From a bacterium (lineage in GTDB: Bacteria > Zhuqueibacterota > Zhuqueibacteria > Residuimicrobiales > Krinioviventaceae), in assembly GCA_963675755.2 (NCBI GenBank), contig CAXXMD010000002.1, positions 800,001 to 864,000 on the forward strand: a stretch of 64,000 bases of DNA, in the 5' to 3' direction. Both the position numbers and the translations under genes were made by a program. Each line of letters starts with the position of its first letter. Position 1 is the first letter of the stretch. Shown here in pieces: positions 10,576 to 25,763 of the stretch. A model generated the notes under the pieces. The model saw nothing but the letters and a program-made list of their open reading frames with translations. It made no database searches and was not told the DNA's origin.

Positions 10576-11709
10576 TTATTGCCAAACACCAGCAATAGCT
10601 TGCCCGCAATAAGCGCAATTACCATCATGCATATGATTTTCAGTAACTTTGAAGCCTTTACGTCCAATCAACAATTTTCCGCAATCCGGGCAATAGGTAT
10701 TTTCTCCTTTATCACCAGGTATATTTCCGGTATACACAAATTGTAAACCGCTATCAATACCAATCTGACGAGCGGTTTGTAAGGTTTTTATAGGTGTAGA
10801 TGGCACATTTTTCAAGCGGTATTGTGGATGAAATCTGGAAAAATGTACCGGTGTTTCGGGCCCCAATTCAGAGGCAATCCATTTACACATTTCCGATAAT
10901 TCGTTGGGATCATCATTTTGGCCGGGGATTACAAGATACACAATTTCGGTCCACATATTGTTGTGTTTGAGCAAAACCAACGTATCCAATACCGGACGGA
11001 GCTCTCCTGATACCAACTCTTTATAAAAACGTTCGGTAAATGCTTTTAAATCAATTTTGACCGCATCCAACACCTCAACAAGATCTCGCATTGGCTCTGG
11101 TTTGATATAACCATTAGAGATCATAACACTTTTAATCCCCTTTTCACGCCCCTTAACGGCCGAATCGTACATATATTCTGTAAAGATAACCGGCTCCGTA
11201 TATGTATATGCAATAGATTTACATTGGTAAACATCTGCCAGGTCAGCAACTTTTGTCGGGGACATATCATAATTTCGAATTTGTTCAGGACGAGATTGAG
11301 ATATTTCCCAGTTTTGGCAGAATTTGCAAAACACATTACAACCTGCGGTTGCAATTGAAAATGCCAATGTGCCAGGCAAAAAATGAGACAAGGGCTTTTT
11401 CTCGATAGGATCAACATTAGCTGAACAAGGTTTACCATAGACCAGGGTATAATATGTTCCATTTTGGTTTTCACGAACACCACAATACCCTCTCTCCAAA
11501 TCATCAATTACACATTCACGGGGACACAATTGGCATTGTATTTTACGGTTATCCAGTTTTTTATAATATCTTGCTTCAACAAGCTTAAAGTCTTGCTTCA
11601 AGCTAGCACCATAACCATTTACAGACAAGTTTAAAGCAGTTGAGCATACCCCAAAAGCACAAGCCGAGCAAGTTGTTTTAAGATAATCTCGTCTTGATAT
11701 TTTTTTCAT
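10576..11709 (-). CDS. amrS: AmmeMemoRadiSam system radical SAM enzyme with a twin-arginine signal
   Basis: CQLCPREC...GYCGVR, DPIEKKPLSHF, radical SAM motif GCNVFCKFCQNWEISQ, AYTYTEP, C-terminal CPDCG/CAYCG. N-terminus MKKISRRDYLK. Confidence 0.92.
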   Translation of the reverse strand: MKKISRRDYLKTTCSACAFGVCSTALNLSVNGYGASLKQDFKLVEARYYKKLDNRKIQCQLCPRECVIDDLERGYCGVRENQNGTYYTLVYGKPCSANVDPIEKKPLSHFLPGTLAFSIATAGCNVFCKFCQNWEISQSRPEQIRNYDMSPTKVADLADVYQCKSIAYTYTEPVIFTEYMYDSAVKGREKGIKSVMISNGYIKPEPMRDLVEVLDAVKIDLKAFTERFYKELVSGELRPVLDTLVLLKHNNMWTEIVYLVIPGQNDDPNELSEMCKWIASELGPETPVHFSRFHPQYRLKNVPSTPIKTLQTARQIGIDSGLQFVYTGNIPGDKGENTYCPDCGKLLIGRKGFKVTENHMHDGNCAYCGQAIAGVWQ

Positions 11710-12779: not shown

Positions 12780-15146
12780 TTATCTCAGAAAACGTTCAAC
12801 CAATTTTTTAAATCCGGTTTTGGTAAAATCCGCATCGGCAAAATAATCTGAAGCAAGCTGACTGTTATCCTGAGATGGATTTGCTTGTGGTTCAGGCTCA
12901 ATTTCAGGCGGTTCCGGAGGTTCTGGAATACTAGTGTCAAAAGCTGTTGTATTTTCAGGTGTAGTATTGTATTCAACATTAGCAAGATCATTAAATGTTG
13001 AACCATTTCCGCCTTCGTCTTCTATTTCTTCCTGATTATAATCCTGAATATTGTCATTAACTTCTGTTGGATCATTAAACACAGATTGTTGAACTGTCTG
13101 CACAACAGGTTGGTGTACTACAGGCTCAGTATTGTATGAATGTGAAGAACTGGATAATTTCTGAGGTTCTGCTTTTTGTACCAGTTGAGGAGCCTGAATC
13201 TGCTCTTTAGCTTGAACATACATGACACGGTTATCAATAGCTATTGCAATTTGATTTGCAAGTATTTCCAGGGTATGCAGGGTATCTTTATTTGGCATTC
13301 TGCAATCATTCGGATCATCAGCCATTAAAAATCCAATGATTTTCTCTTCTTTGGACTTTATGGGTACAATGACTACAGCCCAGTTTGGCCAGCCACCTTC
13401 ATAATACTCACCTTCTTCTGAACCATAATAAATGCGTTTTAAATGATCAAATACCGGTTCCTGATTCTGAACCAGATATGATTTGCCTTGTAGATAATCT
13501 TTGCGTAATAATTGACTGTATTCTTTGAGATTATAATTTAATTCCTTGATCTGAGCCAGTTTTATCTTGTCATCACATGCTACGGCTTTGGTTTCAAGCA
13601 TACCACTCTTTTTACTGATCAAGACAAGAGAAACAAGGTTGAAATCCAATGAAAATTTGACTGACCAGACAACTTCTTTGAGTAATTCACTCAAACTGTA
13701 ATACAATTTAAATACATTACTGTTAACCAGAATCTGTTTCATGCGACGGTTGCGACGTTCAAGTGTAGAAATACGATAGTAATTTTCAACCGTAACGGAA
13801 ACCAGCCTGCTGAATAATTCCAGATTGTAAAAAGTGGATTTTGTAGGTGTATTACCTTCACCCGGCTCGTCCAAAGATATATAACCAAAGGTATTGTTGT
13901 TTTTATCAGCAAGATTCAGGATAATCAGGTCACGTTTATGCCATTGTGCAATGGGCGATGTTTCCTGAGAATCATTTTTAACCAGTTCATTATTCAAGTG
14001 ACTTGCTAACTGGCGACGTTCTTTGTTGTGATAAATCACCTTAATGCGAGATTTATCTGCAAATACTTTATCAATAACACGCTGGGGAACTTCAATATTG
14101 TCTTTTGAGGAATTTTCTCGCGCAGAATAACCTACCATTGCCTGTTTTACATATGCATGCTTGCGCGGATCCAAAAGCGCAACGGTTGATCGTTTAAATC
14201 CAAAAACCTGGCATACCAATTCCGAAAGATTTTTTAACAAGACTTCAATAGATTCAGAATAACTACGATGAATGATATCAATTACTTCTGATATCATTTG
14301 TTTTTGATCAACAGTTTTTTGTACTACAAAGGTACCGGAAGATTTTACATGGACTTTGACAAGGTTTCCACGAAATCCAATGACATGATTTTTATCATTA
14401 TCGTCATAAATGAGAGAAATTTGTAATTTTGCAGGTATCTTTTCACCGGTTTTTGCAATAACATACACTTCAAATGACATTGCCGGTTTTTTAATTGCAA
14501 CATTGAGGATCTTGTTGAAAAAATCAGTATCATCAACAGATGCAAGTACATCATCGATAGTTAATTCCAGTAATTCAGCATTAGTATATCCTGCTACATC
14601 TTCAATATATTCATTAGCGGAAAGAAAACGGCGCTTACGGTCACAAACAAAATAACCAATTTCACCACTTTGTACATGCGGGATATCTGTTTCAAGTAAA
14701 TTTTTGGGTTCTTCAACTTCTATAATAGGCAGTTCATCATGAACCGGCATGGGTTCTGGCAAGGGTTCATCGGGATGGACTTTGAACTCGGCTGCTCGTT
14801 TGAGGCTTTCTGATAATGCAGAAAGATAGCCTTTCTTTTTGACAACAAATTCAAAAACACCCAAATTTTGCACATCCTGAAAAATCTGTTCATCATCTTC
14901 ATTTACAGTCAAGATGGTTGGATGAATACGACTGATCTTTTTAAGCGTTTCCGTAAAAGAATCATGATGTCCATTAGCCAGTTCACTGTCAATTAACAAA
15001 ATATCAAATTCTACATTCGTAAACTGTTCCTGCACTTCCTTTAAAGAAGTTGCTCCAATTGGATTATATTCATCATTTTGTACGCTTATGACCTGTCGGG
15101 TTGCTTCTACATATGAGGCATTCGGATGCGCTATTGATATTTTCAT
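12780..15146 (-). CDS. Atypical REC-PAS-GAF-GAF sensory protein with an acidic low-complexity tail and no recognisable output domain
   Basis: REC-like FDILLIDSEL...FEFVVKK; PAS GYFVCDRKRRFLSANEYIEDVAGYTNAELL; two GAFs (..TFGYISLDEP.., ..IIGFLMADDP..LEILANQIAIAIDN). Likely start is ATG 15146 (track start 15200). Confidence 0.75.
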   Translation of the reverse strand: MKISIAHPNASYVEATRQVISVQNDEYNPIGATSLKEVQEQFTNVEFDILLIDSELANGHHDSFTETLKKISRIHPTILTVNEDDEQIFQDVQNLGVFEFVVKKKGYLSALSESLKRAAEFKVHPDEPLPEPMPVHDELPIIEVEEPKNLLETDIPHVQSGEIGYFVCDRKRRFLSANEYIEDVAGYTNAELLELTIDDVLASVDDTDFFNKILNVAIKKPAMSFEVYVIAKTGEKIPAKLQISLIYDDNDKNHVIGFRGNLVKVHVKSSGTFVVQKTVDQKQMISEVIDIIHRSYSESIEVLLKNLSELVCQVFGFKRSTVALLDPRKHAYVKQAMVGYSARENSSKDNIEVPQRVIDKVFADKSRIKVIYHNKERRQLASHLNNELVKNDSQETSPIAQWHKRDLIILNLADKNNNTFGYISLDEPGEGNTPTKSTFYNLELFSRLVSVTVENYYRISTLERRNRRMKQILVNSNVFKLYYSLSELLKEVVWSVKFSLDFNLVSLVLISKKSGMLETKAVACDDKIKLAQIKELNYNLKEYSQLLRKDYLQGKSYLVQNQEPVFDHLKRIYYGSEEGEYYEGGWPNWAVVIVPIKSKEEKIIGFLMADDPNDCRMPNKDTLHTLEILANQIAIAIDNRVMYVQAKEQIQAPQLVQKAEPQKLSSSSHSYNTEPVVHQPVVQTVQQSVFNDPTEVNDNIQDYNQEEIEDEGGNGSTFNDLANVEYNTTPENTTAFDTSIPEPPEPPEIEPEPQANPSQDNSQLASDYFADADFTKTGFKKLVERFLR

Positions 15147-15466
15147 ATTACCTGCTACTCCAATATAATTCAGCAAAAAGCTCTGAAATTCACGAAACAA
15201 TTAACAAAAATTTGTACACATAATCAAGAAAATAGATAATAAATACTGTCGAAAAATGATGTGATTACTTTTTGCCACATTTAAAAGAAAAAATATACAA
15301 TTTTGGGTAATCGCAAATTACATTTTTGAAAAGCATTATTATCATCCATTTACTCATGTTGATTTTTATATACTTAGACATACAATTGTCTGGTTATATT
15401 TAAAACAAAATTAAATCCAACAAACATCCAATTTAAAGCAAAATCCAAGCCAAAAAGAGTATTGAC

Positions 15467-15501
15467 AAAAAAAAAGCCAGAGATTTTATAAACTCTGGCT
15501 T
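15467..15501 (-). terminator. Intrinsic terminator of the TrmB-led operon
   Basis: aagccagag-attttataaa-ctctggctt stem; the A9 run gives a U-tract on the minus strand; 15 bp past the last stop codon. Confidence 0.75.
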
Positions 15502-15515
15502 GTAATTTTCATTCA

Positions 15516-16001
15516 TTACTTTCGTAACCGGGATCGTGTATATTCAATTAATCCCCCTGCATCCATTACCATCTGACGTGTGCCGGACAGAGGCTGTATA
15601 TTAAATTCTTTACCAGTAGTCATGTTTAATACTTTATCACCAGAAATATCAAGTTCATGTCCATTTTCAGCATCAATATCTGGTACGGTTATGGTTTGTA
15701 ATCCTAAATTTACTGCATTTTGCAGAAAAATTCTGGCATAGCTTTTGGCAATTACAATCAAATCATGGCCTTTTAAACAGGATGCTGCCTGTTCTCGTGA
15801 TGAACCGCAACCAAAATTTTCTCCACCAACAATAATACTTTTAGCAGTTAACGTTCCACTGTTTAATAAAGTATTAAACGTTTTATCATCTGCAAAGGCA
15901 TATTCAGGAGTCTCTGTAGGTAATACTGTGGCCATAAATCTTCCGGGATATATAGTATCTGTTGATATATCATTGCCAAGTTTATAAACAACTTTGGACA
16001 T
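15516..16001 (-). CDS. Homoaconitase/3-isopropylmalate dehydratase small subunit (LeuD/HacB type)
   Basis: DISTDTIYPGR, GENFGCGSSREQA, AKSYARIFLQNAVNLGL, AGGLIEY. Confidence 0.9.
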   Translation of the reverse strand: MSKVVYKLGNDISTDTIYPGRFMATVLPTETPEYAFADDKTFNTLLNSGTLTAKSIIVGGENFGCGSSREQAASCLKGHDLIVIAKSYARIFLQNAVNLGLQTITVPDIDAENGHELDISGDKVLNMTTGKEFNIQPLSGTRQMVMDAGGLIEYTRSRLRK

Positions 16002-16002
16002 A

Positions 16003-17295
16003 TTAACTCCTTTCCTGACGTGGATCAGTTATTTTACCGGTTATTGCTGATGCGGCAGCCGTTGCAGGTGAACACAAGTACACTTCTGCATTGGGATTTC
16101 CCATTCTGCCTTTAAAGTTGCGATTTGTAGTTGCTAGAGCTACCTCTCCATCAGCAAGTGCTCCCTGATGCACTCCCAGGCAGCATCCACATCCCGGATT
16201 CATGATTACAGCGCCACTTTGTGCAAGCATTTCAAGATAACCTTCCTCCAATGCTTTTCGATATATCTTGCTGGATGCTGGAAAAACCAGCATTCTAACA
16301 TCATTGGCTACTTTTTTGCCCTTTAATATCTTTGCTGCTATTTCTAAATCCTCTAATCTGCCATTTGTACAAGAACCGATTACAATCTGGTCCAGCTTCA
16401 CATTATTAACATTACTAATAGGTTCAACATTATCAACAGTATGGGGACAGGCAATCTGAGGCTCAAGATTGGTTACATCTATATCCACAATCTGCTCGTA
16501 AACAGCATCCTGGTCCGGTGTAACAAAATTCAACTCCCCGGTCACACCCGCTTCCTCACGTAGATACCGTTCTGTTTCCTGATCGGCAGGTACAATACCT
16601 GCGCTGGCACCGGCTTCGACTGACATGTTTGAAATTGTTAATCTGCCTGATACATTCATATTTGAAATAACACTACCATGGTATTCTAAAACTTTGAATG
16701 TTGCACCTTTGGCAGTAATCTTGCCAATTAGATATAATATAATATCTTTGGCAGCTAATGTTTCAGGCATAACCCCATTAATATTGACTTTAATAGTGCC
16801 CGGGACTTCAAGATTCAATAATGTACCCAAACACCACACACTTGCCATTTCCGTTGCTCCAATTCCCATTGAAAAAGCACCTAATGCACCATGGCTGGTC
16901 GTATGCGAATCTGTACCCAAAACTACGTAACCGGGACGAACATAGCCATATTCGGGTAATATTTGATGGCAAATGCCACCTACATCACCCCGGATTTCAT
17001 GAAATTTAGAAACTCCCTGTTCTTTAAGAAAATTTCTAATTTTCTTTTGGTTATTTGCAGTCTTGGAACTTTCTGCGGGCACACGGTGGTCAAATATAAT
17101 TGCAATTTTATCAGGGTCCCAAACTTTTGGAGACAAATCTGTTCCTTTATAAACTTCAAAGAATTGGTTAATAACCAAAGCAGCATTTTCATGAGACATG
17201 GCAAGATCAACAGAAGGCTCAATGATATCACCGGGTTTTACACTTGAAACATTTGCTGCTCTGGCAAGTATTTTTTCTGCAACAGTCATTGCCAT
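16003..17295 (-). CDS. Homoaconitase/3-isopropylmalate dehydratase large subunit (LeuC/HacA type, [4Fe-4S])
   Basis: MTVAEKILARA, FDHRVP, GICHQ, GTDSHT, IGSCTNGR, PGCGCCLG, TNRNFKGRMG. Confidence 0.92.
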   Translation of the reverse strand: MAMTVAEKILARAANVSSVKPGDIIEPSVDLAMSHENAALVINQFFEVYKGTDLSPKVWDPDKIAIIFDHRVPAESSKTANNQKKIRNFLKEQGVSKFHEIRGDVGGICHQILPEYGYVRPGYVVLGTDSHTTSHGALGAFSMGIGATEMASVWCLGTLLNLEVPGTIKVNINGVMPETLAAKDIILYLIGKITAKGATFKVLEYHGSVISNMNVSGRLTISNMSVEAGASAGIVPADQETERYLREEAGVTGELNFVTPDQDAVYEQIVDIDVTNLEPQIACPHTVDNVEPISNVNNVKLDQIVIGSCTNGRLEDLEIAAKILKGKKVANDVRMLVFPASSKIYRKALEEGYLEMLAQSGAVIMNPGCGCCLGVHQGALADGEVALATTNRNFKGRMGNPNAEVYLCSPATAAASAITGKITDPRQERS

Positions 17296-17308
17296 TGTTT
17301 TTCTCCAA

Positions 17309-18502
17309 TTAAATTATACCTTCTTTATGGAAATTATCAATTTCCTCTCTTGAATACCCCACTTGGCTGAGAAGTTCATGAGTATGTTGGGATAATCTTG
17401 GAGGCGGATTGTCGATATTTGCCGGCGTTTTACTAAATTTAGCTGTGAGATTGAACAGCTTTAACTCACCCAATTCATCATCTGGTACTGATGCTAATGT
17501 TTGACGATGCTGGACTTGATCTGCTGACAATGCATCTTTCAAGGCTAATATATCCCCCGATGGTACTCCTTGAGCATTTAAAAGATCAACCCATTCAACA
17601 GTATCTTTATCAATCAATTTAGCTTCAAGCAATGGAGTAAGAATTCTTCGATTCTTTTTTCTTGTATCTCGCTCCTTAAATCGTGGATCCTCCTGTAATT
17701 CGGGGATTCCCAGAACCTCTGTTACACTGCACCATTGTTCCTGTTTATTTGCGGCAATATTAATATATCCGTCTCTGGTTTTAAATGTTCCTGAAGGTGC
17801 AGCTGTAAAATTATCATTCCCCAACAAGGTAGGAGCTTGACCTCCAATCAACAGATTTGCCGCAACCCATCCCATTAATGGCATTATTGAATCCAGCAAA
17901 GCAATGTCAATAAATTGTCCTTCGCCTGTTCTTTCCCGGTAATACAGGGCAGCCATAATAGCAAAAGCAGCATTCAAACCACCAACGGTATCACATACCG
18001 GGAAACCACATCGCAAAGGATTCAGAGTTTCATCACCATTTACAGACATAACTCCGCTTAGACCCTGAATGATTTGGTCATATGCCGGTTTTAATGCATC
18101 AGGACCGGTTTGTCCGAAACCTGAAATAGCGCAATACACAATTTTAGGATTAATAGATTGAAGTGTATCATAATCAAGACCCAACCGCTTCATAACACCG
18201 GGTCTGAAATTTTCAACAACAACATCTGCTGTTTTTACGAGTTTTTTGAATATCTGTTTGGCATTATCATCCTTAAGATTCAGCGTTAAAGATTTTTTAT
18301 TAGCATTTTGAGCCAAAAAACTGGTGCCCATAAGCTTCTTGTTCAATTCAGGCATACATCCCAATTTCCTGGCCAAATCACCATCTTGAGGGTTTTCAAT
18401 CTTGATAACTTCTGCTCCCAATAATGCCAGGTGTAATGTACCAAACGGGCCAGACAAAACGTTTGTCAAGTCCAATACCCTTGTACCTTTTAATAGACTC
18501 AT
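17309..18502 (-). CDS. Class III (CaiB/BaiF) CoA-transferase
   Basis: RVLDLTNVLSGPF, LGAEVIKIE, NANKKSLTLNLK, DVVVENFRPGVM, ISGFGQTGP, catalytic Asp in PVCDTVGG. Confidence 0.92.
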   Translation of the reverse strand: MSLLKGTRVLDLTNVLSGPFGTLHLALLGAEVIKIENPQDGDLARKLGCMPELNKKLMGTSFLAQNANKKSLTLNLKDDNAKQIFKKLVKTADVVVENFRPGVMKRLGLDYDTLQSINPKIVYCAISGFGQTGPDALKPAYDQIIQGLSGVMSVNGDETLNPLRCGFPVCDTVGGLNAAFAIMAALYYRERTGEGQFIDIALLDSIMPLMGWVAANLLIGGQAPTLLGNDNFTAAPSGTFKTRDGYINIAANKQEQWCSVTEVLGIPELQEDPRFKERDTRKKNRRILTPLLEAKLIDKDTVEWVDLLNAQGVPSGDILALKDALSADQVQHRQTLASVPDDELGELKLFNLTAKFSKTPANIDNPPPRLSQHTHELLSQVGYSREEIDNFHKEGII

Positions 18503-18505
18503 GCT

Positions 18506-19426
18506 TTAATGTTCTCCTTTAAGCACTTCAGGAAACCCTGTTTTATACAATCTACCAGACAAATCTCGTTCAAGTGTTTCAGCAATACCATTTACAAACG
18601 TTACCAACTTTTCAATATCCGGAAGATCACTTTTTCCCATTCGTTTGAACAGATACACCAGATCCTCGGTACAGACATTTCCCGAACTTGTCTTTGTAAA
18701 AGGACAACCACCAAGTCCGCCAAACGCGGTTTCAAAATGCCTTACACCAGATTGAAAAGCAGCATAACAATTTGCTATTCCAGCTCCAAATGTATCGTGA
18801 AAATGGCAGGCACCTTCAATAGCGGAATCTAGTTCATATATTGACGTATAATAATCCTGTACCTGGTCAGGATGTGCATAGCCAGCTGTATCAGCAAGAC
18901 TGATGAAACGAAAACCGGAATCGAGATATGTTTTTACAATATTCATAACCGATTCTTTGGCAATTTTACCCTCAAATCCGCATCCAAAAGCTGATTGAAC
19001 AGATAACTGGACTTTTATACCGTGCTGTTGTGCTTGTTTTGCCATTGCAATAATACGCTTTAAAGCTTCATTGGTATCCATCCCTGTATTTTTCTGACTG
19101 TGTGTTTGACTCGCGGATACACCCATACAAAACAGTTCAACGCCACAAGCTAAACCTCTGTCAAGTCCCCGTTCATTCAAAACCAGACCACTAAAAACGA
19201 TATCCTGAGAATTTAAATCAGAATTATGGACCAATTTGAACAATTCATCAGTATTAGCCATTTGAGGTACTTTGACAGGGTGCACAAACGAACCTAGTTG
19301 TATGGTTTTGATACCGGCTTTAACTAATTTTTTGACCCACATCAATTTTGTCTCAGTTGGCATTGTTTTTTGTTCAATTTGAAGTCCATCACGAAGACCT
19401 ACTTCATGTATAATCACACTTTGCAT
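18506..19426 (-). CDS. HMG-CoA lyase-family (DRE-TIM) 3-hydroxyacyl-CoA lyase
   Basis: EVGLRDGLQ, SFVHPVKVPQMA, SLADTAG, HFHDTFG, GGLGGCPF, GNVCTEDL; 306 aa, no LeuA regulatory domain. Confidence 0.88.
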   Translation of the reverse strand: MQSVIIHEVGLRDGLQIEQKTMPTETKLMWVKKLVKAGIKTIQLGSFVHPVKVPQMANTDELFKLVHNSDLNSQDIVFSGLVLNERGLDRGLACGVELFCMGVSASQTHSQKNTGMDTNEALKRIIAMAKQAQQHGIKVQLSVQSAFGCGFEGKIAKESVMNIVKTYLDSGFRFISLADTAGYAHPDQVQDYYTSIYELDSAIEGACHFHDTFGAGIANCYAAFQSGVRHFETAFGGLGGCPFTKTSSGNVCTEDLVYLFKRMGKSDLPDIEKLVTFVNGIAETLERDLSGRLYKTGFPEVLKGEH

Positions 19427-20532
19427 GCAATTGCCTCTGCCATTTCAGTTGTTGAACTGTTTCCACCCATATCATATGTTCTCACTTTACCTTCTCGAAT
19501 GACATCTGCTACAGCTTTTTCAAGTTTATCTGCCTTTTCCGTTTCACCAAGGTAATCCAGCATTAATTTAGCTGCTAATAACATTGCAATAGGATTCACC
19601 TTGTCCATGCCTGCATATTTGGGTGCGCTACCATGAGTTGGCTCAAAAACAGCATAATTATCACCGATATTGCCACTTGAAGCGAATCCCAATCCACCAA
19701 CCAGTTGCGCTGCAAGATCCGATATAATATCGCCAAACATATTTTCAGCGACCAGCACACCATAGTTTTCAGGATTTTTCACAAGCCACATACACATAGC
19801 ATCGATATTGGTTTCCCACAATTCAATATCCGGATAGTTTTTGGCAACCTCACGAGCACAACGCGTCATTAAACCACCCGTTTCACGCAATACATTGGGT
19901 TTTTCAACCAATGTAACTGTTTTATAACCAAATTTTTGGGCATATTTAAAAGCCTCATTCACAATATTAGTACATCCTTCTTTGGTTACAATACGTGTGG
20001 AAACTGCAATCTCATCGAGTGGAACATTTTCAAACTTTTTCATCTTGGCATTGTTTTGCAAAAGTGTATTGAAAACCTGTTCTGGAAGTGGATGAAACTC
20101 TACACCGGCATAAAGACCTTGTGTGTTTTCACGGAAAACAACCAGGTCAATCCCCTCTTTGTGATTCAATGGATTACCATTATATGCTTTACAGGGACGT
20201 AAATTGGTTCTTAAATTGAACATTTGACGTAATTTCACGATTGGTGAAAAATAATCAAGACCTTTGGATTGTAAATGTAGTGCAAGTTCTTTTGCAGCTT
20301 CGTCTTTAGGTTTTGAAGTTATTGCTCCAAATAGAGCTGCATCTGTTTGTTTTAATATATCTATTGTGCGGTCAGGCAATGGATTTCCTTCGGTTTTCCA
20401 AAATTCCCAACCTATATCACCATGGATGTATTCCGCATCAAGCTCAAGCTTGTTCAGGACGAGTTTGGTCGCATTCATCACATCAATACCAACTCCATCT
20501 CCTGGCAGCCATGCAATTTTATATTTAGCCAT
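19414..20532 (-). CDS. Isocitrate/isopropylmalate dehydrogenase family protein, homoisocitrate dehydrogenase-like
   Basis: PGDGVG, ALFGAITS, YFSPIVKLR, NLRP, FRENTQGLY, NMFGDIISD, FEPTHGSAPKYAG, NPIAMLL. Confidence 0.85.
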   Translation of the reverse strand: MAKYKIAWLPGDGVGIDVMNATKLVLNKLELDAEYIHGDIGWEFWKTEGNPLPDRTIDILKQTDAALFGAITSKPKDEAAKELALHLQSKGLDYFSPIVKLRQMFNLRTNLRPCKAYNGNPLNHKEGIDLVVFRENTQGLYAGVEFHPLPEQVFNTLLQNNAKMKKFENVPLDEIAVSTRIVTKEGCTNIVNEAFKYAQKFGYKTVTLVEKPNVLRETGGLMTRCAREVAKNYPDIELWETNIDAMCMWLVKNPENYGVLVAENMFGDIISDLAAQLVGGLGFASSGNIGDNYAVFEPTHGSAPKYAGMDKVNPIAMLLAAKLMLDYLGETEKADKLEKAVADVIREGKVRTYDMGGNSSTTEMAEAIACKV

Positions 20533-20552
20533 TTGATTTTCCTTAATTTCTG

Positions 20553-21884
20553 TTACATTTCGTCAAAGACCTGTTTTAATATGTCCAAACAGCAGTCAAT
20601 GTGATCTTTTTCAACAACCAATGCTGGTGCAAATCGAATGGAATTGGGTCCACAACCCAAAATGATAAGTCCTTTATAAAAAGCTTTATCTAGTATTTCA
20701 TTTCGTTTTTGGGCATCTGGTTCAAATGATTCGGTATCCTTAATGATCTCAATACCAACCATTAATCCTTTTCCTCTGACATCACCTATAAATGGATATT
20801 CAGCAGCCATTTCATCGAGTCGGGATATGAGATATTCACCCATTTGGGCTGCATTTTCAATTAATTCAGCTTCAAGTAATTCTATAGTCTTTAATGCAGC
20901 CGCACAGGATACGGGATTACCACCAAAAGTTGAAGCATGTGATCCATATGGCCAATTCATAACATCACTTTTTGCAATAATAGCTCCCAGGGGCATGCCG
21001 GAAGCAATTCCTTTGGCAACACAGATAATATCTGGTTCTAAACCATAATGTTCGCTGGCAAAAAACTTGCCTGTTCGTCCCATACCGGCCTGAATTTCAT
21101 CGGCTACAATGAGAAAACCATGTTTTTCAGACAGTTTTTTCAAGCTATCCACATATTCTTTAGGCGGGACAATATATCCACCTTCACCCTGAATAGGTTC
21201 AAAAAATACAGCAGCAACTTCTTCTGGTGGGACCGTTTTTTCAAAAATTGTATTTTCAAGATATTTAACACATTCAAAATGACAGGAACCGTACTTTTGT
21301 CCAAATATACAACGGTAACAATAGGGATAAGGAATATGAGTTACATCTGGCAGCAAGGGAGAAAATCCGGCTTTTTGTACAACTTTACTTCCGGTAAGTG
21401 ACAATGCACCATAAGTACGACCATGAAATGCACCCGTATAAGCCAACAAACGTGTGCGTTTTGTATTATAACGTGCAAGCTTAATAGCAGCTTCAACCGC
21501 TTCTGCACCGGAATTTGTAAAAAACACGCGTTTCCCTGAATTTCCGGGGGCGTTTTCAACCAGCTTTTTAGCCAATTCGGATTGAACTGTATAATAAAAA
21601 TCAGTTCCTGACATATGTAACAGGTTATCTGCCTGATCTTTGATAGCTTGAACGACTTGAGGATGACAATGCCCTGTTGAACAAACAGCAATACCACTGC
21701 AAAAATCGAGAAACTCGTTACCATCTATATCTTCTAAAATTACACCCCTACCCTTTTCAGCAACACAGGGAAAATCACGAGTATAAGAAGGAGAAACATA
21801 TTGATTATCAGTTTCAATAACTTTTTGAGCTTTGGGGCCCGGTAAATCTGTCTTGATATTTGGATATGGATATGGATTGGTCAT
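20553..21884 (-). CDS. Class III PLP omega-aminotransferase (ornithine/lysine/4-aminobutyrate type)
   Basis: LPGPKAQ, FLDFCSGIAV, NSGAEAVEAAIK, AFHGRT, EPIQGEGG, DEIQAGMGRTG, AKGIASG (PLP Lys), STFGGNP. Start moved to ATG 21884 because the track's 22055 start overlaps the upstream gene. Confidence 0.9.
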   Translation of the reverse strand: MTNPYPYPNIKTDLPGPKAQKVIETDNQYVSPSYTRDFPCVAEKGRGVILEDIDGNEFLDFCSGIAVCSTGHCHPQVVQAIKDQADNLLHMSGTDFYYTVQSELAKKLVENAPGNSGKRVFFTNSGAEAVEAAIKLARYNTKRTRLLAYTGAFHGRTYGALSLTGSKVVQKAGFSPLLPDVTHIPYPYCYRCIFGQKYGSCHFECVKYLENTIFEKTVPPEEVAAVFFEPIQGEGGYIVPPKEYVDSLKKLSEKHGFLIVADEIQAGMGRTGKFFASEHYGLEPDIICVAKGIASGMPLGAIIAKSDVMNWPYGSHASTFGGNPVSCAAALKTIELLEAELIENAAQMGEYLISRLDEMAAEYPFIGDVRGKGLMVGIEIIKDTESFEPDAQKRNEILDKAFYKGLIILGCGPNSIRFAPALVVEKDHIDCCLDILKQVFDEM

Positions 21885-21897
21885 AGCAATGCCTTTC

Positions 21898-23442
21898 TCA
21901 ATCAAATTGAATACCCTGCGCAAGAACCGTCTCTTGGCTCCAGTTAATTGTGTTTGTTTGTCTCCGCATATAGCCTTTCCAGGCATCTGATCCGCTCTCA
22001 CGACCACCACCCGTCTCTTTTTCTCCACCAAAAGCGAGTCCAATTTCAGCACCACTTGTTCCCAGGTTTACATTGGCTATTCCACAATCAGAACCGGCAT
22101 AACTAAGGAATGTCTCTGACTCTATCAGATCGTTGGTAAAGATCGATGAACTAAGCCCCTGTGGAACATCATTTTGAATTTCTATTGCATTTTCTATAGT
22201 TCCATCATATTTCAATAGATATAAAATGGGTGCAAATGTTTCTTCCTGAACAATATCCATTGAATTTTCAACCTCAGCAATAGCTGGTTTTACATAACAC
22301 CCACCCGGATATTCACTCTCATTCAAGAGCTCTCCACCATAAATAAGCGTACCGCCCTGTTCACGAATCTGTTGAATTGCTTTTTGCATTGTTTCAACAG
22401 CGGTGGTATCTACCAATGGTCCCATGAGAATATTTTCATCCATAGGATTTCCAATGGTTATACGACTATAATAATCCAACAATAGTGTTTTAAATTTTTC
22501 ATATATGGATTCAGCAACAATAACCCTTCTGGTAGATGTACACCGTTGGCCGGCAGTTCCAACAGCTCCAAATAATACATTTTTAGCTGCAAGTTCCAGA
22601 TCTGCCTTGGGAGTTACTATTATTGCGTTATTACCACCCAATTCAAGTATTGTCTTACCCAGGCGCTCACCAACTGTTTTGGATATATGCTTTCCGAGAC
22701 GAGTAGATCCGGTATAGCTTACTAGATTTACACGTTTATCATAATTTAACAGATCACCAATCTCTGACCCTTTACCTGTTATCAGTGTTGCAATACCTTT
22801 GGGGGCATCATTAGCCTCAAGTACTGCTTCAAGTATTTTTTGACATGCTATGGCAGTCAAGGGGACAGGAGATGCGGGTTTCCATACACATACATCGCCA
22901 CAAACAAGTGCTATGGAAAGATTCCAGCTCCATACAGCAACAGGGAAATTAAAAGCGGAAATGATACCTACAACACCAAGTGGATGCCATTGCTCATACA
23001 TACGATGTTTGGGTCGTTCACTGTGAGTTTGTACTCCATACAGCATTCGTGACTGACCACAGGCATAATCACAAATATCAATCATTTCCTGGACTTCTCC
23101 CCAGCCCTCTTGAATGGATTTACCCATTTCCAGAGTTACCAGTTTGCCTAGTGCGTCTTTTTTCTCACGAAGCGCAACACCCAATTGTCTGACAATTTCT
23201 CCTCTTTTAGGAGCTGGTACTTGTTTCCATTGAGCAAAAGATTGTTGTGCGGAGCGGATAACAATATCATAATCTTCTTTACTTGCTTGTTTTACTTGAG
23301 CAATTCGTTCACCAGTTATGGGTGACAAAACATCAACAACAGTACCGCTTCCAAACCATTTTTCTCCATCAAAAACACCGTCATTAACATCTTTTAAATC
23401 CAGAGCTTTTAATACTTCGGTAATTTCATCCCGGATTTTCAT
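21898..23442 (-). CDS. Aldehyde dehydrogenase family 7 (alpha-aminoadipate semialdehyde / piperideine-6-carboxylate dehydrogenase-like)
   Basis: PAPKRGEIVRQ, GEVQEMIDICD, SERPKHRMYEQWHPLGVVGIISAFNFPVAVWSWN, LELGGNNA, GTAGQRCT, EETFAPILY, SDCGIANVN, SGAEIG.AFGGEKETGGGRESGSDAWK are ALDH7/antiquitin signatures. Confidence 0.92.
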   Translation of the reverse strand: MKIRDEITEVLKALDLKDVNDGVFDGEKWFGSGTVVDVLSPITGERIAQVKQASKEDYDIVIRSAQQSFAQWKQVPAPKRGEIVRQLGVALREKKDALGKLVTLEMGKSIQEGWGEVQEMIDICDYACGQSRMLYGVQTHSERPKHRMYEQWHPLGVVGIISAFNFPVAVWSWNLSIALVCGDVCVWKPASPVPLTAIACQKILEAVLEANDAPKGIATLITGKGSEIGDLLNYDKRVNLVSYTGSTRLGKHISKTVGERLGKTILELGGNNAIIVTPKADLELAAKNVLFGAVGTAGQRCTSTRRVIVAESIYEKFKTLLLDYYSRITIGNPMDENILMGPLVDTTAVETMQKAIQQIREQGGTLIYGGELLNESEYPGGCYVKPAIAEVENSMDIVQEETFAPILYLLKYDGTIENAIEIQNDVPQGLSSSIFTNDLIESETFLSYAGSDCGIANVNLGTSGAEIGLAFGGEKETGGGRESGSDAWKGYMRRQTNTINWSQETVLAQGIQFD

Positions 23443-23452
23443 ACCAACTCCT

Positions 23453-24241
23453 TTATTTTTGATAAATATTTCTCAGAATATGGAAATCATTACCAAAAAT
23501 TGATTTTGCCTGCTCTTCCAGGCGATTTATCAATTTCCAGCTATAAATATCATGTTTGATAAAATCTTTTGCCACACCTACCAGACTTTCATTTGCTGTT
23601 AGTACGCCAATATTGCTTTTTTGATCAGAAATAATGCCCTGTAACAAATAAGAATTATCTACAACCAGTGTAAATTCACGTCCCCCTTTTTCTTTTATCT
23701 TTTCTTCTTCCAAAAGATGATGATAAACCGTTCCAAAATCTAACTCAAGGTTTCCATACTGTACAATCGCAATATTTTTATCCTGCTTTTCTTTTAGCTT
23801 TTCCTGTAAAAGAATCAATTCTTCTTCCCAGCAGAATAAAAGAATCTCATTTTGACAATTTAGTATCAATTCATTGGCTTTATTAATTAAATCTTCCCGA
23901 GAATTAATATCCCAAATATAGTGTGAAGAAATTCCCTTAGCTTCAGGTAGATGCTTTTTCAAAAGATTGATTGATGCAGTAGTATCGTCCTGAAATCGTT
24001 TTAATAATATTTCAATATCTATAGGAATATATTTAACAGGATCTGTTTGTATTGGAGAAATGACAGATTTTTCCAACAGCTTGTTGATTACTTCATAAAC
24101 TTTTGATGGTGGGATCCCGGAACGCTTGGCTAATTCATATCCCGTAATAGGATTTTTTTTAACCAGTGCAACATATGCTTTTGATTCATACTGTGAAAAT
24201 CCAAATCTTGCTAGATTTTCCATAATAATTGATATTGGCAA
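23453..24241 (-). CDS. TrmB-family transcriptional regulator
   Basis: LARFGFSQYESKAYVAL...TGYELAKRSGIPPSKVYEVINKL (TrmB wHTH) plus a C-terminal effector domain; TTG start with GGAG RBS. Confidence 0.88.
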   Translation of the reverse strand: MPISIIMENLARFGFSQYESKAYVALVKKNPITGYELAKRSGIPPSKVYEVINKLLEKSVISPIQTDPVKYIPIDIEILLKRFQDDTTASINLLKKHLPEAKGISSHYIWDINSREDLINKANELILNCQNEILLFCWEEELILLQEKLKEKQDKNIAIVQYGNLELDFGTVYHHLLEEEKIKEKGGREFTLVVDNSYLLQGIISDQKSNIGVLTANESLVGVAKDFIKHDIYSWKLINRLEEQAKSIFGNDFHILRNIYQK

Positions 24242-24255
24242 TTCGAACTCCTTAT

Positions 24256-24273
24256 TAACTACCGTTGTAGTTA
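24256..24273. promoter_or_regulatory. Palindromic operator TAACTAC-N4-GTAGTTA (candidate TrmB site)
   Basis: Perfect 7-4-7 inverted repeat between the -10 box and the RBS of the trmB-like gene. Confidence 0.7.
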
Positions 24274-24301
24274 TTATATTAAAAGTTCATAGAATTGTCA
24301 A
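24273..24301 (-). promoter_or_regulatory. Sigma70 promoter of the TrmB operon
   Basis: Minus strand TTGACA (24301-24296), 17 nt spacer, TATAAT (24278-24273): exact consensus. Confidence 0.85.
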
Positions 24302-24330
24302 GAAAAATTTATTGTATTTTTAAAATAGAT

Positions 24331-24362
24331 AAAAAAAGGCCGCTATTTAATAATAACGGCCT
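24331..24362 (-). terminator. Intrinsic terminator after the Gfo/Idh/MocA gene
   Basis: Minus strand aggccgttatt-atta-aatagcggcct followed by a T tract. Confidence 0.7.
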
Positions 24363-24378
24363 GAAAATGTAGTGTGGA

Positions 24379-25692
24379 TCAGATATTCTTTGGAACTACA
24401 AAAGGTTCGCGATAATCGCGGGTGAGCATTTCATCGGCTTCGGGATCATTAACAAATCTTTCACTGGAGGGATCAAAATCCAACTGACGTCCCAGGCGAT
24501 AAGAGATATTTCCCAAATGTGCAAGGCCTGATGAAAGATGAGCAGTTTCAACCGGTGCATTCAAAATAGATTTATCGTGAGCACGAACAGCTTTAATAAA
24601 GTTAGCAAAATGATCGCCACCCTCTTTTTTACTTGGGCCAGGTTTTACATCTCTACCTTCACCAATATAGGTTTCATATGTATCATAACCTTTAATTAGC
24701 ATATAGCCTTTAGAACCATAGAAAAGGTTACCTGTACCTACACCATCTTCTTTATTAGTAAACCAGTGTCTAACTTCAACTTCCATAAATTTGTTTTCGT
24801 CAGGCCAATAGTATTGTGAGCTAAGAATTTCAGGTGTTTCTTTGCAATCATCCCACAAAAATTTTCCACCCATGGATGATATCTTGCTTGGCAACCCTAC
24901 ATCTAAACCCCACATACTCATATCAGTTTCGTGAACACCCTGGTTACCAATATCACCATTACCAAAATCCCAATGCCAGTGCCAATTGTAATGAACAATA
25001 TTACGTGAGAATGGGCGTTCCTGAGCAGGTCCTAACCAAAGATCATAATCTAAACCATCAGGTACCGGTTCAAAGCCTTTATCACCAATATCAGGGCGCC
25101 AACGATATATAGTTGCTCTGGACATATAAACATCACCTATCAAACCATCACGCAAATGTTGAACGGCTTCCTGCAAAGCTACAGAACTACGTAATTGAAC
25201 ACCATGTTGAACAATACGATCATATTTTGCTGCAGCTTCAACCATTTTTCGGCCTTCATAAATATTATGAGAACCAGGTTTTTCTACATAAACATCTTTG
25301 CCAGCCTGGCAAGCCCATATAGTAGCAAGTGAATGCCAATGGTTACAGGTTGCTATGCTCACAACATCAATATCTTTATCTTCGTAAACTTTGCGTAAAT
25401 CCTGTTCCAGGGTAACCTTTTTATCATATTCTTCTTTGAAATCTTTGGCTCTTTGATCAAGTACTTTTTGGTCAGGATCGCATAGCGTAACAACTTCTAC
25501 ACCATCCAGGTTCATATACCCTTTAATATGGCTTTTACCTCTTCCATTTACTCCTAAAACAGCTACATTGATTTTATCATTTGCTCCTTTTGCAGCTTTA
25601 GGTAAAATCATAGGGGCAGAAATTGCTGCAGCTGCTGTAATACCTGCAGAACTTTTCATAAAATCACGACGGCTAACCTTTTCTTTTTCCAT
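24379..25692 (-). CDS. Tat-exported Gfo/Idh/MocA oxidoreductase
   Basis: SRRDFMK twin-arginine signal; VAVLGVNGRG, ATCNHWH, GKDVYVEKP, GDIGNQGVH. Confidence 0.9.
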   Translation of the reverse strand: MEKEKVSRRDFMKSSAGITAAAAISAPMILPKAAKGANDKINVAVLGVNGRGKSHIKGYMNLDGVEVVTLCDPDQKVLDQRAKDFKEEYDKKVTLEQDLRKVYEDKDIDVVSIATCNHWHSLATIWACQAGKDVYVEKPGSHNIYEGRKMVEAAAKYDRIVQHGVQLRSSVALQEAVQHLRDGLIGDVYMSRATIYRWRPDIGDKGFEPVPDGLDYDLWLGPAQERPFSRNIVHYNWHWHWDFGNGDIGNQGVHETDMSMWGLDVGLPSKISSMGGKFLWDDCKETPEILSSQYYWPDENKFMEVEVRHWFTNKEDGVGTGNLFYGSKGYMLIKGYDTYETYIGEGRDVKPGPSKKEGGDHFANFIKAVRAHDKSILNAPVETAHLSSGLAHLGNISYRLGRQLDFDPSSERFVNDPEADEMLTRDYREPFVVPKNI

Positions 25693-25763
25693 GGTCAAAA
25701 CCTCAATTTAATAATTATTTATGATTTAATTTATTAATTGAACCGGTTTAATTTTTATAAATT

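Follow-up and report, generated by a model that had tools for sequence, protein, structure and literature searches.

A candidate operon for lysine catabolism through homocitrate cleavage in a bacterium of the candidate division KSB1

Introduction

The stretch of DNA analyzed here (64,000 nucleotides, positions 800,001 to 864,000 of contig CAXXMD010000002.1, assembly GCA_963675755.2; hereafter the window) carries an operon in which genes for a TrmB-like regulator, an ALDH7-type dehydrogenase and a class III aminotransferase are followed by those for an Iso_dh-family dehydrogenase (termed F0), a lyase resembling 3-hydroxy-3-methylglutaryl-CoA (HMG-CoA) lyase, a class III CoA-transferase, and the large and small subunits of a LeuC/LeuD-like hydro-lyase. 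The locus raises the question of which pathway would need all of these enzymes together. A first-pass annotation proposed that lysine is degraded by the α-aminoadipate route run in reverse, ending in the cleavage of homocitryl-CoA. We give this reading, apart from its cofactor, a probability of about one half: it is supported because genes leading from lysine to 2-aminoadipate are repeatedly linked to F0 and LeuCD-like genes, in operons with different cleavage systems, and because of the content and conservation of the operon itself.

In the proposed pathway, the class III aminotransferase would take the ε-amino group off lysine, and ALDH7 would oxidize the resulting 2-aminoadipate semialdehyde/piperideine-6-carboxylate to 2-aminoadipate, from which the same or a housekeeping aminotransferase would form 2-oxoadipate. 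F0 would then act as a reductive carboxylase, converting 2-oxoadipate to homoisocitrate, probably with NADPH. The LeuCD-like hydro-lyase would turn homoisocitrate, via cis-homoaconitate, into homocitrate, the CoA-transferase would activate this to homocitryl-CoA, and the HMG-CoA-lyase-like enzyme would split the thioester into acetyl-CoA and 2-oxoglutarate, the latter being recycled as amino acceptor. The net conversion would be lysine + 2-oxoglutarate + CO2 to 2 glutamate + an acetyl unit. Genes 4–8 are a self-contained module that KSB1 lineages joined to the pair of ALDH7 and aminotransferase genes. Repression is probably exerted by the TrmB-like protein, through a palindrome behind the −10 box.

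The host genome (G000, candidate division KSB1) has a completeness of 98%, with 6.48 Mb spread over 3 contigs. Compared genomes are denoted by G-numbers and compared loci by L-numbers; G001 belongs to the host genus, G017, G014 and G005 to one other genus (g5), and G003 and G010 to the same family. Families were assigned with Pfam and NCBIfam/curated models by setting the bit score against the model cut-off, and paired scores below are given in that order.

Architecture and control of the operon

The eight genes (24241..15516) form one transcription unit that, with promoter and terminator, spans 24301..15467 on the minus strand:

24273..24301, minus strand: sigma-70-type promoter, TTGACA (24301-24296), 17-nt spacer, TATAAT (24278-24273)
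24256..24273, minus strand: operator-like palindrome TAACTAC-N4-GTAGTTA, overlapping the end of the −10 box
23453..24241, minus strand: TrmB-family regulator, 262 aa, TTG start after AAGGAG (PF01978, 70 bits)
21898..23442, minus strand: ALDH7-type L-piperideine-6-carboxylate/2-aminoadipate-semialdehyde dehydrogenase (NF050084 equivalog)
20553..21884, minus strand: class III (omega-type) aminotransferase, 443 aa from ATG 21884 (PF00202, 426 bits; PRK05769)
19414..20532, minus strand: Iso_dh-family dehydrogenase F0, 372 aa (PF00180; motifs SPIVKLR and HGSAPKYAG)
18506..19426, minus strand: HMG-CoA-lyase-like (DRE-TIM) lyase, 306 aa (PF00682; NF004283 subfamily)
17309..18502, minus strand: class III CoA-transferase, 397 aa (PF02515, 405.5 bits, model positions 1-366 of 366)
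16003..17295, minus strand: LeuC/HacA-like large subunit of an Fe-S dehydratase, 430 aa (TIGR01343 hacA_fam, 528 bits, cut-off 386)
15516..16001, minus strand: LeuD/HacB-like small subunit, 161 aa (TIGR02087, 109.0 bits, borderline at a cut-off of 108.95)
about 15467..15500, minus strand: terminator-like hairpin (AGCCAGAG / CTCTGGCT, 10-nt loop) followed by a T-run

Pfam and NCBIfam searches agree with the families that had been named for all eight genes, and the tight packing described earlier was borne out by measurement: the intergenic distances, using the corrected aminotransferase start, are 10, 13, 20, −13 (an overlap), 3, 13 and 1 nt. The aminotransferase open reading frame (ORF) as listed (20553-22055) overlaps ALDH7; alignments with orthologues, together with a ribosome site (GAAAGG), place the start at ATG 21884. 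The consensus promoter, operator and terminator of the first-pass annotation were likewise recovered. The promoter matches the consensus at 12/12 positions, the sole such site among 40 promoter-like sites within 15000-24600, and is kept upstream of the orthologous operons in G001, G017 and G014. When these three regions and the window were aligned by eye, the half-sites of the palindrome were identical in all four and the spacer alone varied. The hairpin was read from the sequence; its loop lies outside the rule of the automated terminator scan (loops of 3-8 nt only), and hence it is unlisted there.

The palindrome is the presumed binding site of the TrmB-like regulator. This protein matches its family in the helix-turn-helix domain only; TrmB equivalogs were not reached (83 vs 650 and 57 vs 600), and their alignments end around residue 161-164, with no C-terminal sugar-binding domain recovered. 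TrmB-like genes of 24-39% identity also head analogous operons at L024, L031, L147, L148, L160, L164, L282 and L284; in two Calditrichia loci such a gene (37-39% identity) heads an F0 operon with CCS/CCL- or CitF-type genes, described below. In the window, all Rfam families stayed below their gathering scores; a lysine riboswitch was therefore not found.

Upper lysine steps

The ALDH7 protein scores 781.1 bits with the NF050084 equivalog (cut-off 730), with the runner-up family at 361.7 bits, and glutamate-semialdehyde dehydrogenase models give 224-255 bits against cut-offs of 648-660. Enzymes of the ALDH7 type oxidize the semialdehyde to 2-aminoadipate and cannot be used for lysine synthesis.

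The aminotransferase passes PRK05769 (645.8 vs 552; its G003 orthologue, 619 vs 552), and the classical lysine 6-aminotransferase (LAT) model is absent from the best 25 of the 69 families that match it. We propose that it serves as lysine 6-aminotransferase and/or 2-aminoadipate aminotransferase. Its family presumably includes TK2101, an omega-aminotransferase that has been characterized. According to a table in the report on that enzyme (PMC9986279), L-lysine and L-ornithine are donors, and 2-oxoglutarate and 2-oxoadipate are acceptors. Because TK2101 takes both L-lysine and 2-oxoadipate, the operon's own aminotransferase may carry out both transaminations, that of lysine and that of 2-aminoadipate. 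The gap seen earlier, the lack of a 2-aminoadipate aminotransferase, is real in that the operon has no second aminotransferase, and may be no gap if the TK2101 precedent applies. Since no LKR homologue was found in the host genome, the aminotransferase is the likely entry enzyme.

Enzymes of the five-gene module

F0 passes no curated NCBIfam model. Its best is AksF2, a homoisocitrate dehydrogenase (346 vs 540), and the other homoisocitrate dehydrogenase (HICDH) equivalogs were not reached either (AksF, 288 vs 500; iso_homocit_dh, 189 vs 680); the same holds for the best isocitrate dehydrogenase (ICDH) model (288 vs 510) and for LeuB TIGR00169 (212.7 vs 353.2), the LeuB of the genome being a separate gene. 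The best solved relative is the Thermus HICDH. A substrate loop S-P-I-V-x-[LMI]-R is present in all 134 sampled F0 sequences, with Arg or Lys at x in 124 of them, and the motif H-G-S-A-P-K-Y in 131. The Ile of this loop aligns with the Asn in the Ser-x-Asn pattern of ICDH 6ltf. We assume here the roles of Ser113 and Asn115 known for the ICDH loop. With its basic loop residue and without the ICDH Asn, F0 looks tricarboxylate-specific yet not ICDH-like, and we propose that it is an NADPH-dependent HICDH acting as a 2-oxoadipate reductive carboxylase. The cofactor motif APKYAG is also that of Thermus ICDH (2d1c); in the HICDHs of Thermus and S. pombe it reads APDIAG. We take K-Y in this motif to be a mark of NADP specificity, after work on E. 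coli ICDH. The earlier idea that the NADH formed by ALDH7 drives F0 is doubtful because the F0 motif HGSAPKYAG is NADP-type and not NAD-type.

Motifs gave no clear substrate assignment, as the loops of F0 and LeuD match no known pattern of ICDH, HICDH, isopropylmalate dehydrogenase, homoaconitase or isopropylmalate isomerase. Set aside was the notion, first read from the hydrophobic Ile-Val pair of the F0 loop, that F0 and LeuCD belong to a leucine operon: the neighbors of F0 are CCS/CCL, CitF, HD-domain and PrpD-like genes, not ilv/leu genes. Four of five genomes with F0 have no LeuA-type synthase.

In the large subunit of the hydro-lyase, Cys309, Cys369 and Cys372, as expected for Fe-S ligation, are invariant in 76/76 relatives. 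The methanogen homoaconitase equivalogs were not reached (HacA_Meth, 504 vs 550; HacB, 109 vs 230). Specificity in this family is set by a loop of the small subunit, as stated in PMC7308503. The loop reads PGRFMATV in the window, and PGR[FYH]MATV in 45/45 module-type small subunits; in the alignment, FMAT of the window stands against PYLRT of MJ1271 (the Methanocaldococcus homoaconitase) and RYLVY of MJ1277 (isopropylmalate isomerase). Analogous operons in other genomes carry two isomerization enzymes, either LeuCD with a PrpD-like protein or two LeuCD pairs, and fungal isomerization between homocitrate and homoisocitrate was reported to need two enzymes (PMC3556520).

For the lyase, the score with the HMG-CoA lyase subfamily model NF004283 is above cut-off (255.6 vs 246), solved HMG-CoA lyases give only 127-187 bits (phmmer), and the LysS and nifV models match weakly. 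The lyase retains the catalytic R-D, H-x-H and GGCP motifs, whereas the Glu of I-E-x-x-S-F-V in 6nds, 1ydo and 2cw6, which we take to be Glu72 of the human enzyme, is Gln. This Gln is found in 117 of the 120 best homologues, and we propose that the protein is a homocitryl-CoA lyase. The lyase is the sole HMGL-type lyase of the host genome, where the other HMGL-family genes are two LeuA-like genes beside leuB. It diverges faster than the remaining operon genes: identity to G001 is 85% for the lyase, 88% for the small subunit and 93-97% for the other six genes, and identity to genus g5 is 61-66% for the lyase and 67-85% for the other seven.

The CoA-transferase, a proposed homocitrate CoA-transferase, passes no equivalog (best, succinate-glutarate CoA-transferase, 299 vs 750), and with the operon protein as query it was the single class III CoA-transferase found in the host genome. 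A similar pair has been described for (R)-citramalate (PMC8307300): the substrate, a 2-hydroxy-2-substituted succinate, is activated by a class III CoA-transferase, after which a lyase yields acetyl-CoA and a 2-oxo acid.

Metabolic background of the host

On contig C3 of the host genome, a second Iso_dh gene (LeuB) lies between two leuA-like genes, and a bacterial-type leuCD is also on C3; contig C1 holds an aconitase and a 398-aa ICDH, and a full-length citrate synthase is present. A canonical citrate synthase was also found in G001, G017 and G144. Because these separate LeuB, LeuA-like (two), LeuCD, aconitase, ICDH and citrate synthase genes exist, the five-gene module is not redundant housekeeping in this organism, and the possibility that the operon holds its only leuBCD falls away. 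The canonical ICDH of G010 (G010:C3:85149-86012) matches with one in-frame TGA.

A separate diaminopimelate (DAP) route for lysine synthesis is likely in the host. The first-pass annotation had asked about such a route and about leuABCD: leuA, leuB, leuC, leuD and dapA (above cut-off) were found, and two lysA-like genes, 3-9 kb from dapA, are both below cut-off. Concerning the known fates of 2-oxoadipate, HglS was not found in the host genome, and its single acyl-CoA dehydrogenase falls below the cut-off for glutaryl-CoA dehydrogenase (328 vs 470).

Conservation of the operon and spread of its module

The complete eight-gene block, with its order unchanged, was found again in G001, G017 and G014, between flanking genes that are not the same in the two genera. 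In G005 the last seven genes are present in the same order, on a contig that begins inside ALDH7. Among 167 KSB1 genomes (unpublished G163 and G167 enter the KSB1-phylum tallies only), CoA-transferase orthologues were found in nine, eight of them at ≥74% identity. The ninth, in G031 (G031:C26:17756-18691), matches in two pieces of 62% and 81% identity, as a frameshift or an error of assembly would produce. G144, G145 and G146 have the last five genes alone amid unrelated genes, and in G031 these five are divided over two contig ends.

The same five genes recur widely in metagenomes. At 80 metagenome loci collected around the lyase, of which only those with enough flank enter the ratios, F0 lies directly upstream of the lyase in 42/48, the CoA-transferase downstream in 46/47, LeuC in 35/37 and LeuD in 32/33. 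Close lyase homologues carry names from Ignavibacteria, Anaerolineales, Armatimonadetes, Acidobacteriota, Myxococcota, Bacteroidota and Fermentibacteria. Genes 4–8 are thus a widespread five-gene module (F0-lyase-transferase-LeuC-LeuD), and in KSB1 this module is also seen extended by ALDH7, the aminotransferase and TrmB; of the 80 metagenome loci, 78 have neither an ALDH7 nor an aminotransferase orthologue and two have them. The cluster is therefore conserved elsewhere, as the full block in G001, G017 and G014, as seven genes in G005 and as the five-gene core in many phyla.

Some module loci contain recurrent small ORFs, among them a ~120-aa ORF separating lyase from transferase (L173, L183) and a 111-aa family located after the transferase and before LeuC. 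At L286 (G080:C127, 2294-6130), a module-type F0 (60%) is followed after ~1.4 kb by LeuC (73%) and LeuD (65%), with no lyase or transferase match between F0 and LeuC; this may be a further module variant. At the Calditrichota locus L030, the genes for F0 and the lyase are separated by one for a putative carbonic anhydrase (11236-11610; Pro_CA_2, 151 bits). This fits a CO2-requiring step; it was seen in one of the 80 genome F0 loci introduced below and in none of the 80 metagenome loci. As for the surroundings of the operon in the window, the upstream neighbor (24379-25698) encodes a TAT-signal GFO/IDH/MocA oxidoreductase with its own terminator (24362-24337), whose best model, a BT_2158-type glycoside 3-dehydrogenase, is far under cut-off (170 vs 750), and the downstream neighbor (12780-15200) encodes a PAS/GAF protein of 806 aa, in which a receiver domain matches weakly; both adjoin the operon elsewhere only in the same-genus G001.

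Linkage of F0 to lysine genes and to other cleavage systems

F0 has at least 596 matches in species-representative genomes of many bacterial and archaeal phyla. Around the 80 best F0 loci in genomes (66-84% identity to the F0 of the window), the following genes were counted:

31/80 loci: LeuC-like
27/80 loci: LeuD-like
22/80 loci: HD-domain protein
17/80 loci: two unknown families (F2/F5)
16/80 loci: PrpD/MmgE-like protein
15/80 loci: citryl-CoA-lyase-like protein (CCL)
10-11/80 loci: succinyl-CoA-ligase-like CCS subunits
5/80 loci: CitF
2/80 loci: the lyase + CoA-transferase pair

The usual arrangement is (CCS beta, CCS alpha or CitF)-CCL-HD-LeuC-LeuD-F0-(PrpD-like or second LeuCD pair). These CCS/CCL- and CitF-type operons share the logic of the five-gene module, in that a tricarboxylate is activated, split, isomerized and dehydrogenated, and their activation and cleavage enzymes are non-homologous to those of the module.

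Genes of lysine breakdown join F0 in several of these settings. In the same-family genome G003, the order is TrmB-like-ALDH7-aminotransferase-F0-HD-LeuCD-LeuCD, followed by a CitD/CitE fusion and CitF; G010 has the same order through the second LeuCD, where the stretch stops before the CitD/CitE position, and in both the identity to the window is 69-70% for ALDH7 and 51-53% for the aminotransferase. G013 has TrmB-ALDH7-aminotransferase-F0 at a contig end, and G079 has ALDH7 (72%)-CCS beta-CCS alpha-CCL-HD-LeuCD-F0. In Elusimicrobiota (L079), F0-CCS-CCL ... LeuDC are followed by LKR (AlaDh_PNT, 450 aa), SDH (Sacchrp_dh, 448 aa) and ALDH7 (59%), and in Oligoflexia (L048) F0-LeuC-LeuD-ALDH has SDH and LKR on the opposite strand. 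LKR-SDH-ALDH7 form a separate operon in relatives (G089; L153). Three routes to 2-aminoadipate semialdehyde or 2-aminoadipate thus join F0/LeuCD, and three or four non-homologous cleavage systems take part. Only if F0 acts on 2-oxoadipate does lysine carbon traverse every enzyme of these operons, and the CitDEF-type and ATP-consuming CCS/CCL-type partners fit the direction of cleavage.

These data suggest, tentatively, a widespread "reverse 2-oxoacid elongation" pathway in mostly uncultivated phyla, in which CO2 would be fixed on 2-oxoadipate with NADPH and homocitrate split to acetyl-CoA (or acetate) and 2-oxoglutarate. It would extend over KSB1, Calditrichota, Elusimicrobiota and Oligoflexia and, by name, also Ignavibacteria, Anaerolineae, Acidobacteriota and others, and would draw on at least three interchangeable cleavage systems: HMGL-like lyase with class III CoA-transferase, CCS/CCL-like and CitDEF-like. 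A tree built from 133 F0 sequences places the F0s of the window and of Calditrichota L030, with support 100, inside the "type A" clade of F0s from CCS/CCL- or CitF-type operons, and most module-type F0s fall outside that clade. F0 subtypes have thus replaced one another within the same operon, which suggests that they are functionally equivalent.

Several further features of F0 neighborhoods were observed. The HD-domain protein (~176-189 aa; e.g., L049 7693-8223) is constant in CCS/CCL- and CitDEF-type operons and absent from the lyase/transferase module. At Atribacterota L049 (5960-7681) and at L080, the order is GntR-AtuA-DUF4387-HD-LeuC-LeuD-F0-PrpD-like; AtuA and DUF4387, which take the CCS/CCL or CitF position, may be another system for tricarboxylate activation and cleavage. 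In Zixibacteria, Ignavibacteria and many KSB1, F0 directly follows a conserved trio (F5-F2-F2), as at 17/80 F0 loci (L027, L028, L064, etc.) and in G004, G089, G029, G060, G086, G116 and G069 (L283, L294, L295, L293, L289, L290, L297). The trio consists of a ~830-aa protein, with weak Reg_prop/FlgD_ig/sortilin-like matches at L064, and two paralogous ~300-aa proteins, for which no Pfam family matched at L027 and L064. Saccharopine-dehydrogenase-like "F23" proteins (L049, L080, L082, L088; L180, L185, L214, L234) were dismissed as evidence of lysine metabolism: NCBIfam gave them only one weak match, to carboxynorspermidine synthase (40 vs 800), and some of their neighborhoods contain genes for agmatine deiminase and N-carbamoylputrescine-amidase-like proteins. 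Homologues of neighbors of Atribacterota/Aerophobetes F0 operons lie elsewhere in the host genome, at C1:52856-53962, C2:1686649-1687701 and C2:1378947-1380245; they are a saccharopine-dehydrogenase-like protein (48% to the L049 copy), an Orr-like racemase (42%) and an unknown "F22" protein (66%).

Evidence against the proposal and alternative explanations

A number of observations weigh against lysine catabolism through homocitrate cleavage. In the F0 loop the Ser of ICDH is kept, and the position of Arg85 of the Thermus HICDH, which we take to be the recognizer of the distal carboxylate, is occupied by Val, the next residue being Lys (Arg in most family members). The cofactor motif is equal to that of NADP-ICDH. 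In the LeuD-like loop, the Thr is kept and the Arg of the methanogen YLRT is replaced by Ala. F0 is very widespread, occurring in 127/167 KSB1 genomes against 78/167 for the ALDH7 orthologue, and KSB1 families exist with F0 and without ALDH7 (f15, 12/19 vs 0/19; f17, 5/5 vs 0/5). Several KSB1 families have F0 and no canonical ICDH (f21, 11/12 vs 0/12), and in the Thermoplasmatales genome G042 F0 is the only Iso_dh member found, with no monomeric isocitrate dehydrogenase found; F0 might thus be an ICDH or a dual isocitrate/homoisocitrate enzyme. Partners in the analogous operons pass models named citryl-CoA lyase (277 vs 212) and CitF (510 vs 501). Linkage to lysine genes is rare among the 80 best F0 loci (ALDH7 in 2, LKR + SDH in 2, aminotransferase in 4). 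Of ALDH7 loci picked for long contigs and not at random, 14/20 in KSB1 and 20/20 in Calditrichota have no F0, LeuCD-like or cleavage-system gene within ~10 kb. In 20 more KSB1 stretches around F0 or ALDH7 (two of them ALDH7 alone), F0 followed F5-F2-F2 seven times, belonged to a CCS/CCL operon twice and to an ALDH7 operon once. Co-occurrence of module and ALDH7 (9/9 KSB1 and 7/7 Calditrichota genomes) was rejected as evidence, being uninformative given the high ALDH7 backgrounds (78/167 and 68/86 genomes) and the relatedness of the genomes. Finally, reductive carboxylation is thermodynamically uphill under standard conditions.

Part of this evidence would be explained if the five-gene module worked at the level of citrate (C6) and not of homocitrate, an alternative that we consider unlikely. 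In one version, the lyase would condense oxaloacetate with acetyl-CoA, the transferase would free citrate, LeuCD would be an aconitase and F0 an NADP-ICDH, and the 2-oxoglutarate produced would accept the amino group in lysine deamination. In the other, the C5 analogue named by the first-pass annotation, 2-oxoglutarate would pass through isocitrate and citrate to acetyl-CoA and oxaloacetate, ending an ornithine/glutamate route. The NADP-ICDH cofactor motif of F0 agrees with this, and F0 is perhaps the sole ICDH-like enzyme of G042 and of the KSB1 families just mentioned; yet an extra branch from citrate to 2-oxoglutarate would be redundant beside citrate synthase (G000, G001, G017, G144), aconitase and ICDH (G000), glutamate regenerates 2-oxoglutarate anyway, and Ile in F0 replaces the Asn of the ICDH substrate loop. 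Partners in the analogous operons match citryl-CoA lyase, succinyl-CoA-ligase-like CCS, CitF and CitD/E models, but citrate needs no second isomerization enzyme such as the PrpD-like protein or second LeuCD pair. TK2101-type aminotransferases also accept ornithine (PMC9986279); against an ornithine route, the dehydrogenase passes the piperideine-6-carboxylate model and falls far below the glutamate-semialdehyde ones, and LKR with SDH at L079, L048 and L153 points to saccharopine, which is lysine chemistry. Moreover, 2-aminoadipate would be left without a fate in the host.

It is rather improbable that the ALDH7-aminotransferase pair and the module are unrelated neighbors, the module serving some other 2-alkylmalate, as in the interconversion of (R)-citramalate and 2-oxobutyrate, or consisting of a true HMG-CoA lyase with an HMG CoA-transferase. 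The module stands alone in most phyla, in 78/80 metagenome loci and in KSB1 G144-G146, but in the window one promoter and one terminator enclose all eight closely spaced genes, and the link to ALDH7 recurs in independent lineages with different cleavage systems. It is true that the lyase scores above the cut-off of the HMG-CoA lyase subfamily and that the host has no second HMGL-type lyase; the Gln of the operon lyase at the Glu72-equivalent position, shared by nearly all of its best homologues, is nevertheless unlike the three solved HMG-CoA lyases. A known transferase and lyase pair of this class uses (R)-citramalate (PMC8307300), whereas the basic residue of the F0 loop argues for an anionic side chain and not a methyl or isopropyl group, and the host has two LeuA-like genes, LeuB and LeuCD for citramalate/isopropylmalate chemistry.

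A biosynthetic module that replaces homocitrate synthase (2-oxoglutarate + acetyl-CoA to homocitryl-CoA, homocitrate and 2-oxoadipate, with the thioester energy conserved by CoA transfer and 2-aminoadipate put to another use) would be in keeping with the chemical reversibility of every module step, the homology of DRE-TIM lyases to homocitrate synthase with the weak LysS/nifV matches, and an aminotransferase that could aminate 2-oxoadipate, but is very improbable given the oxidative ALDH7, which has no use in lysine synthesis, the lack of LysW/X/Z/Y/K and of an aminoadipate reductase in the operon, the likely DAP route of the host, the cleavage-type CitDEF and ATP-consuming CCS partners elsewhere, and an NADP-type F0 that favors reduction.

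Relation to known pathways

Lysine catabolism through homocitrate cleavage, as proposed here, shares enzyme superfamilies with α-aminoadipate biosynthesis (HacAB/Lys4, HICDH/Lys12, AksD/E/F), and the LeuC-like subunit passes hacA_fam. The direction would be reversed, by reductive carboxylation, and none of the marker genes of the biosynthetic cluster (homocitrate synthase; LysW/X/Z/Y/J/K or Lys2/9/1) is among the eight, in agreement with the earlier statement that the operon lacks homocitrate and isopropylmalate synthases as well as lysW/X/Z/Y/J/K. The biosynthetic HICDHs have APDIAG and, in Thermus, Arg85, whereas F0 has an NADP-type motif and Val and fails the curated HICDH models; likewise, the methanogen homoaconitase loop YLRT is FMAT in the operon. 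Lysine catabolism via 2-aminoadipate has the same upper part (the ALDH7 orthologue here; LKR + SDH + ALDH7 in relatives), with the difference that the operon aminotransferase is of the PRK05769 type. In the known routes 2-oxoadipate goes to glutaryl-CoA or, by HglS, to 2-hydroxyglutarate, and the proposed route bypasses both.

The lyase and transferase resemble, in a comparison by description and not by sequence, the (R)-citramalyl-CoA lyase and succinyl-CoA:(R)-citramalate CoA-transferase of Chloroflexus (EC 4.1.3.46 / 2.8.3.20). The lyase of that pair is, we assume, a member of the HMG-CoA lyase family. Citramalate carries a methyl group where homocitrate, the proposed substrate, has a carboxyethyl group, and unlike the Chloroflexus pair the operon pair sits with an Iso_dh enzyme and a LeuCD-like hydro-lyase. 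With HMG-CoA lyases (human HMGCL, Bacillus YngG) the lyase shares the fold family and the motifs E-V-G-x-R-D-G-L-Q, H-x-H-D-T and G-G-C-P; these enzymes have Glu in I-E-x-x-S-F-V where the lyase has Gln, and the lyase is nearly always inside the five-gene module and not among leucine-degradation genes. The reaction logic is also that of the reductive tricarboxylic acid cycle segment formed by ICDH, aconitase and CCS/CCL or ATP-citrate lyase, which works one methylene shorter, and the analogous operons place CCS/CCL- or CitDEF-like proteins beside F0. That cycle is autotrophic, whereas the proposed route is catabolic, tied to ALDH7/LKR/SDH, and built on LeuCD-type and HICDH-like enzymes instead of AcnA/B and ICDH.

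The proposed route is rated as a combination of known pieces from known families, namely the upper lysine pathway, reversed α-aminoadipate enzymes and a citramalyl-CoA- or citrate-lyase-like cleavage, with the whole following the reductive tricarboxylic acid segment on a chain longer by one carbon. In titles and the starts of abstracts, in a literature coverage without subscription journals, no account was found of homocitryl-CoA, homocitrate cleavage or a reverse aminoadipate route for lysine.

Implications

If the proposal is correct, the operon would represent a new route of lysine degradation that depends on CO2 and bypasses glutaryl-CoA, and the first catabolic use of the 2-oxoacid chain-elongation enzymes homoaconitase and homoisocitrate dehydrogenase in the backward direction. 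The reductive carboxylation of 2-oxoadipate would be a new CO2-consuming reaction, and homocitrate CoA-transferase, homocitryl-CoA lyase and "homocitrate lyase" would be new activities. A function would also be gained for a five-gene operon that is abundant in metagenomes and for an Iso_dh subfamily, which are now annotated as "HMG-CoA lyase", "3-isopropylmalate dehydrogenase" and the like, and metabolic reconstructions of protein-degrading sediment bacteria would change.

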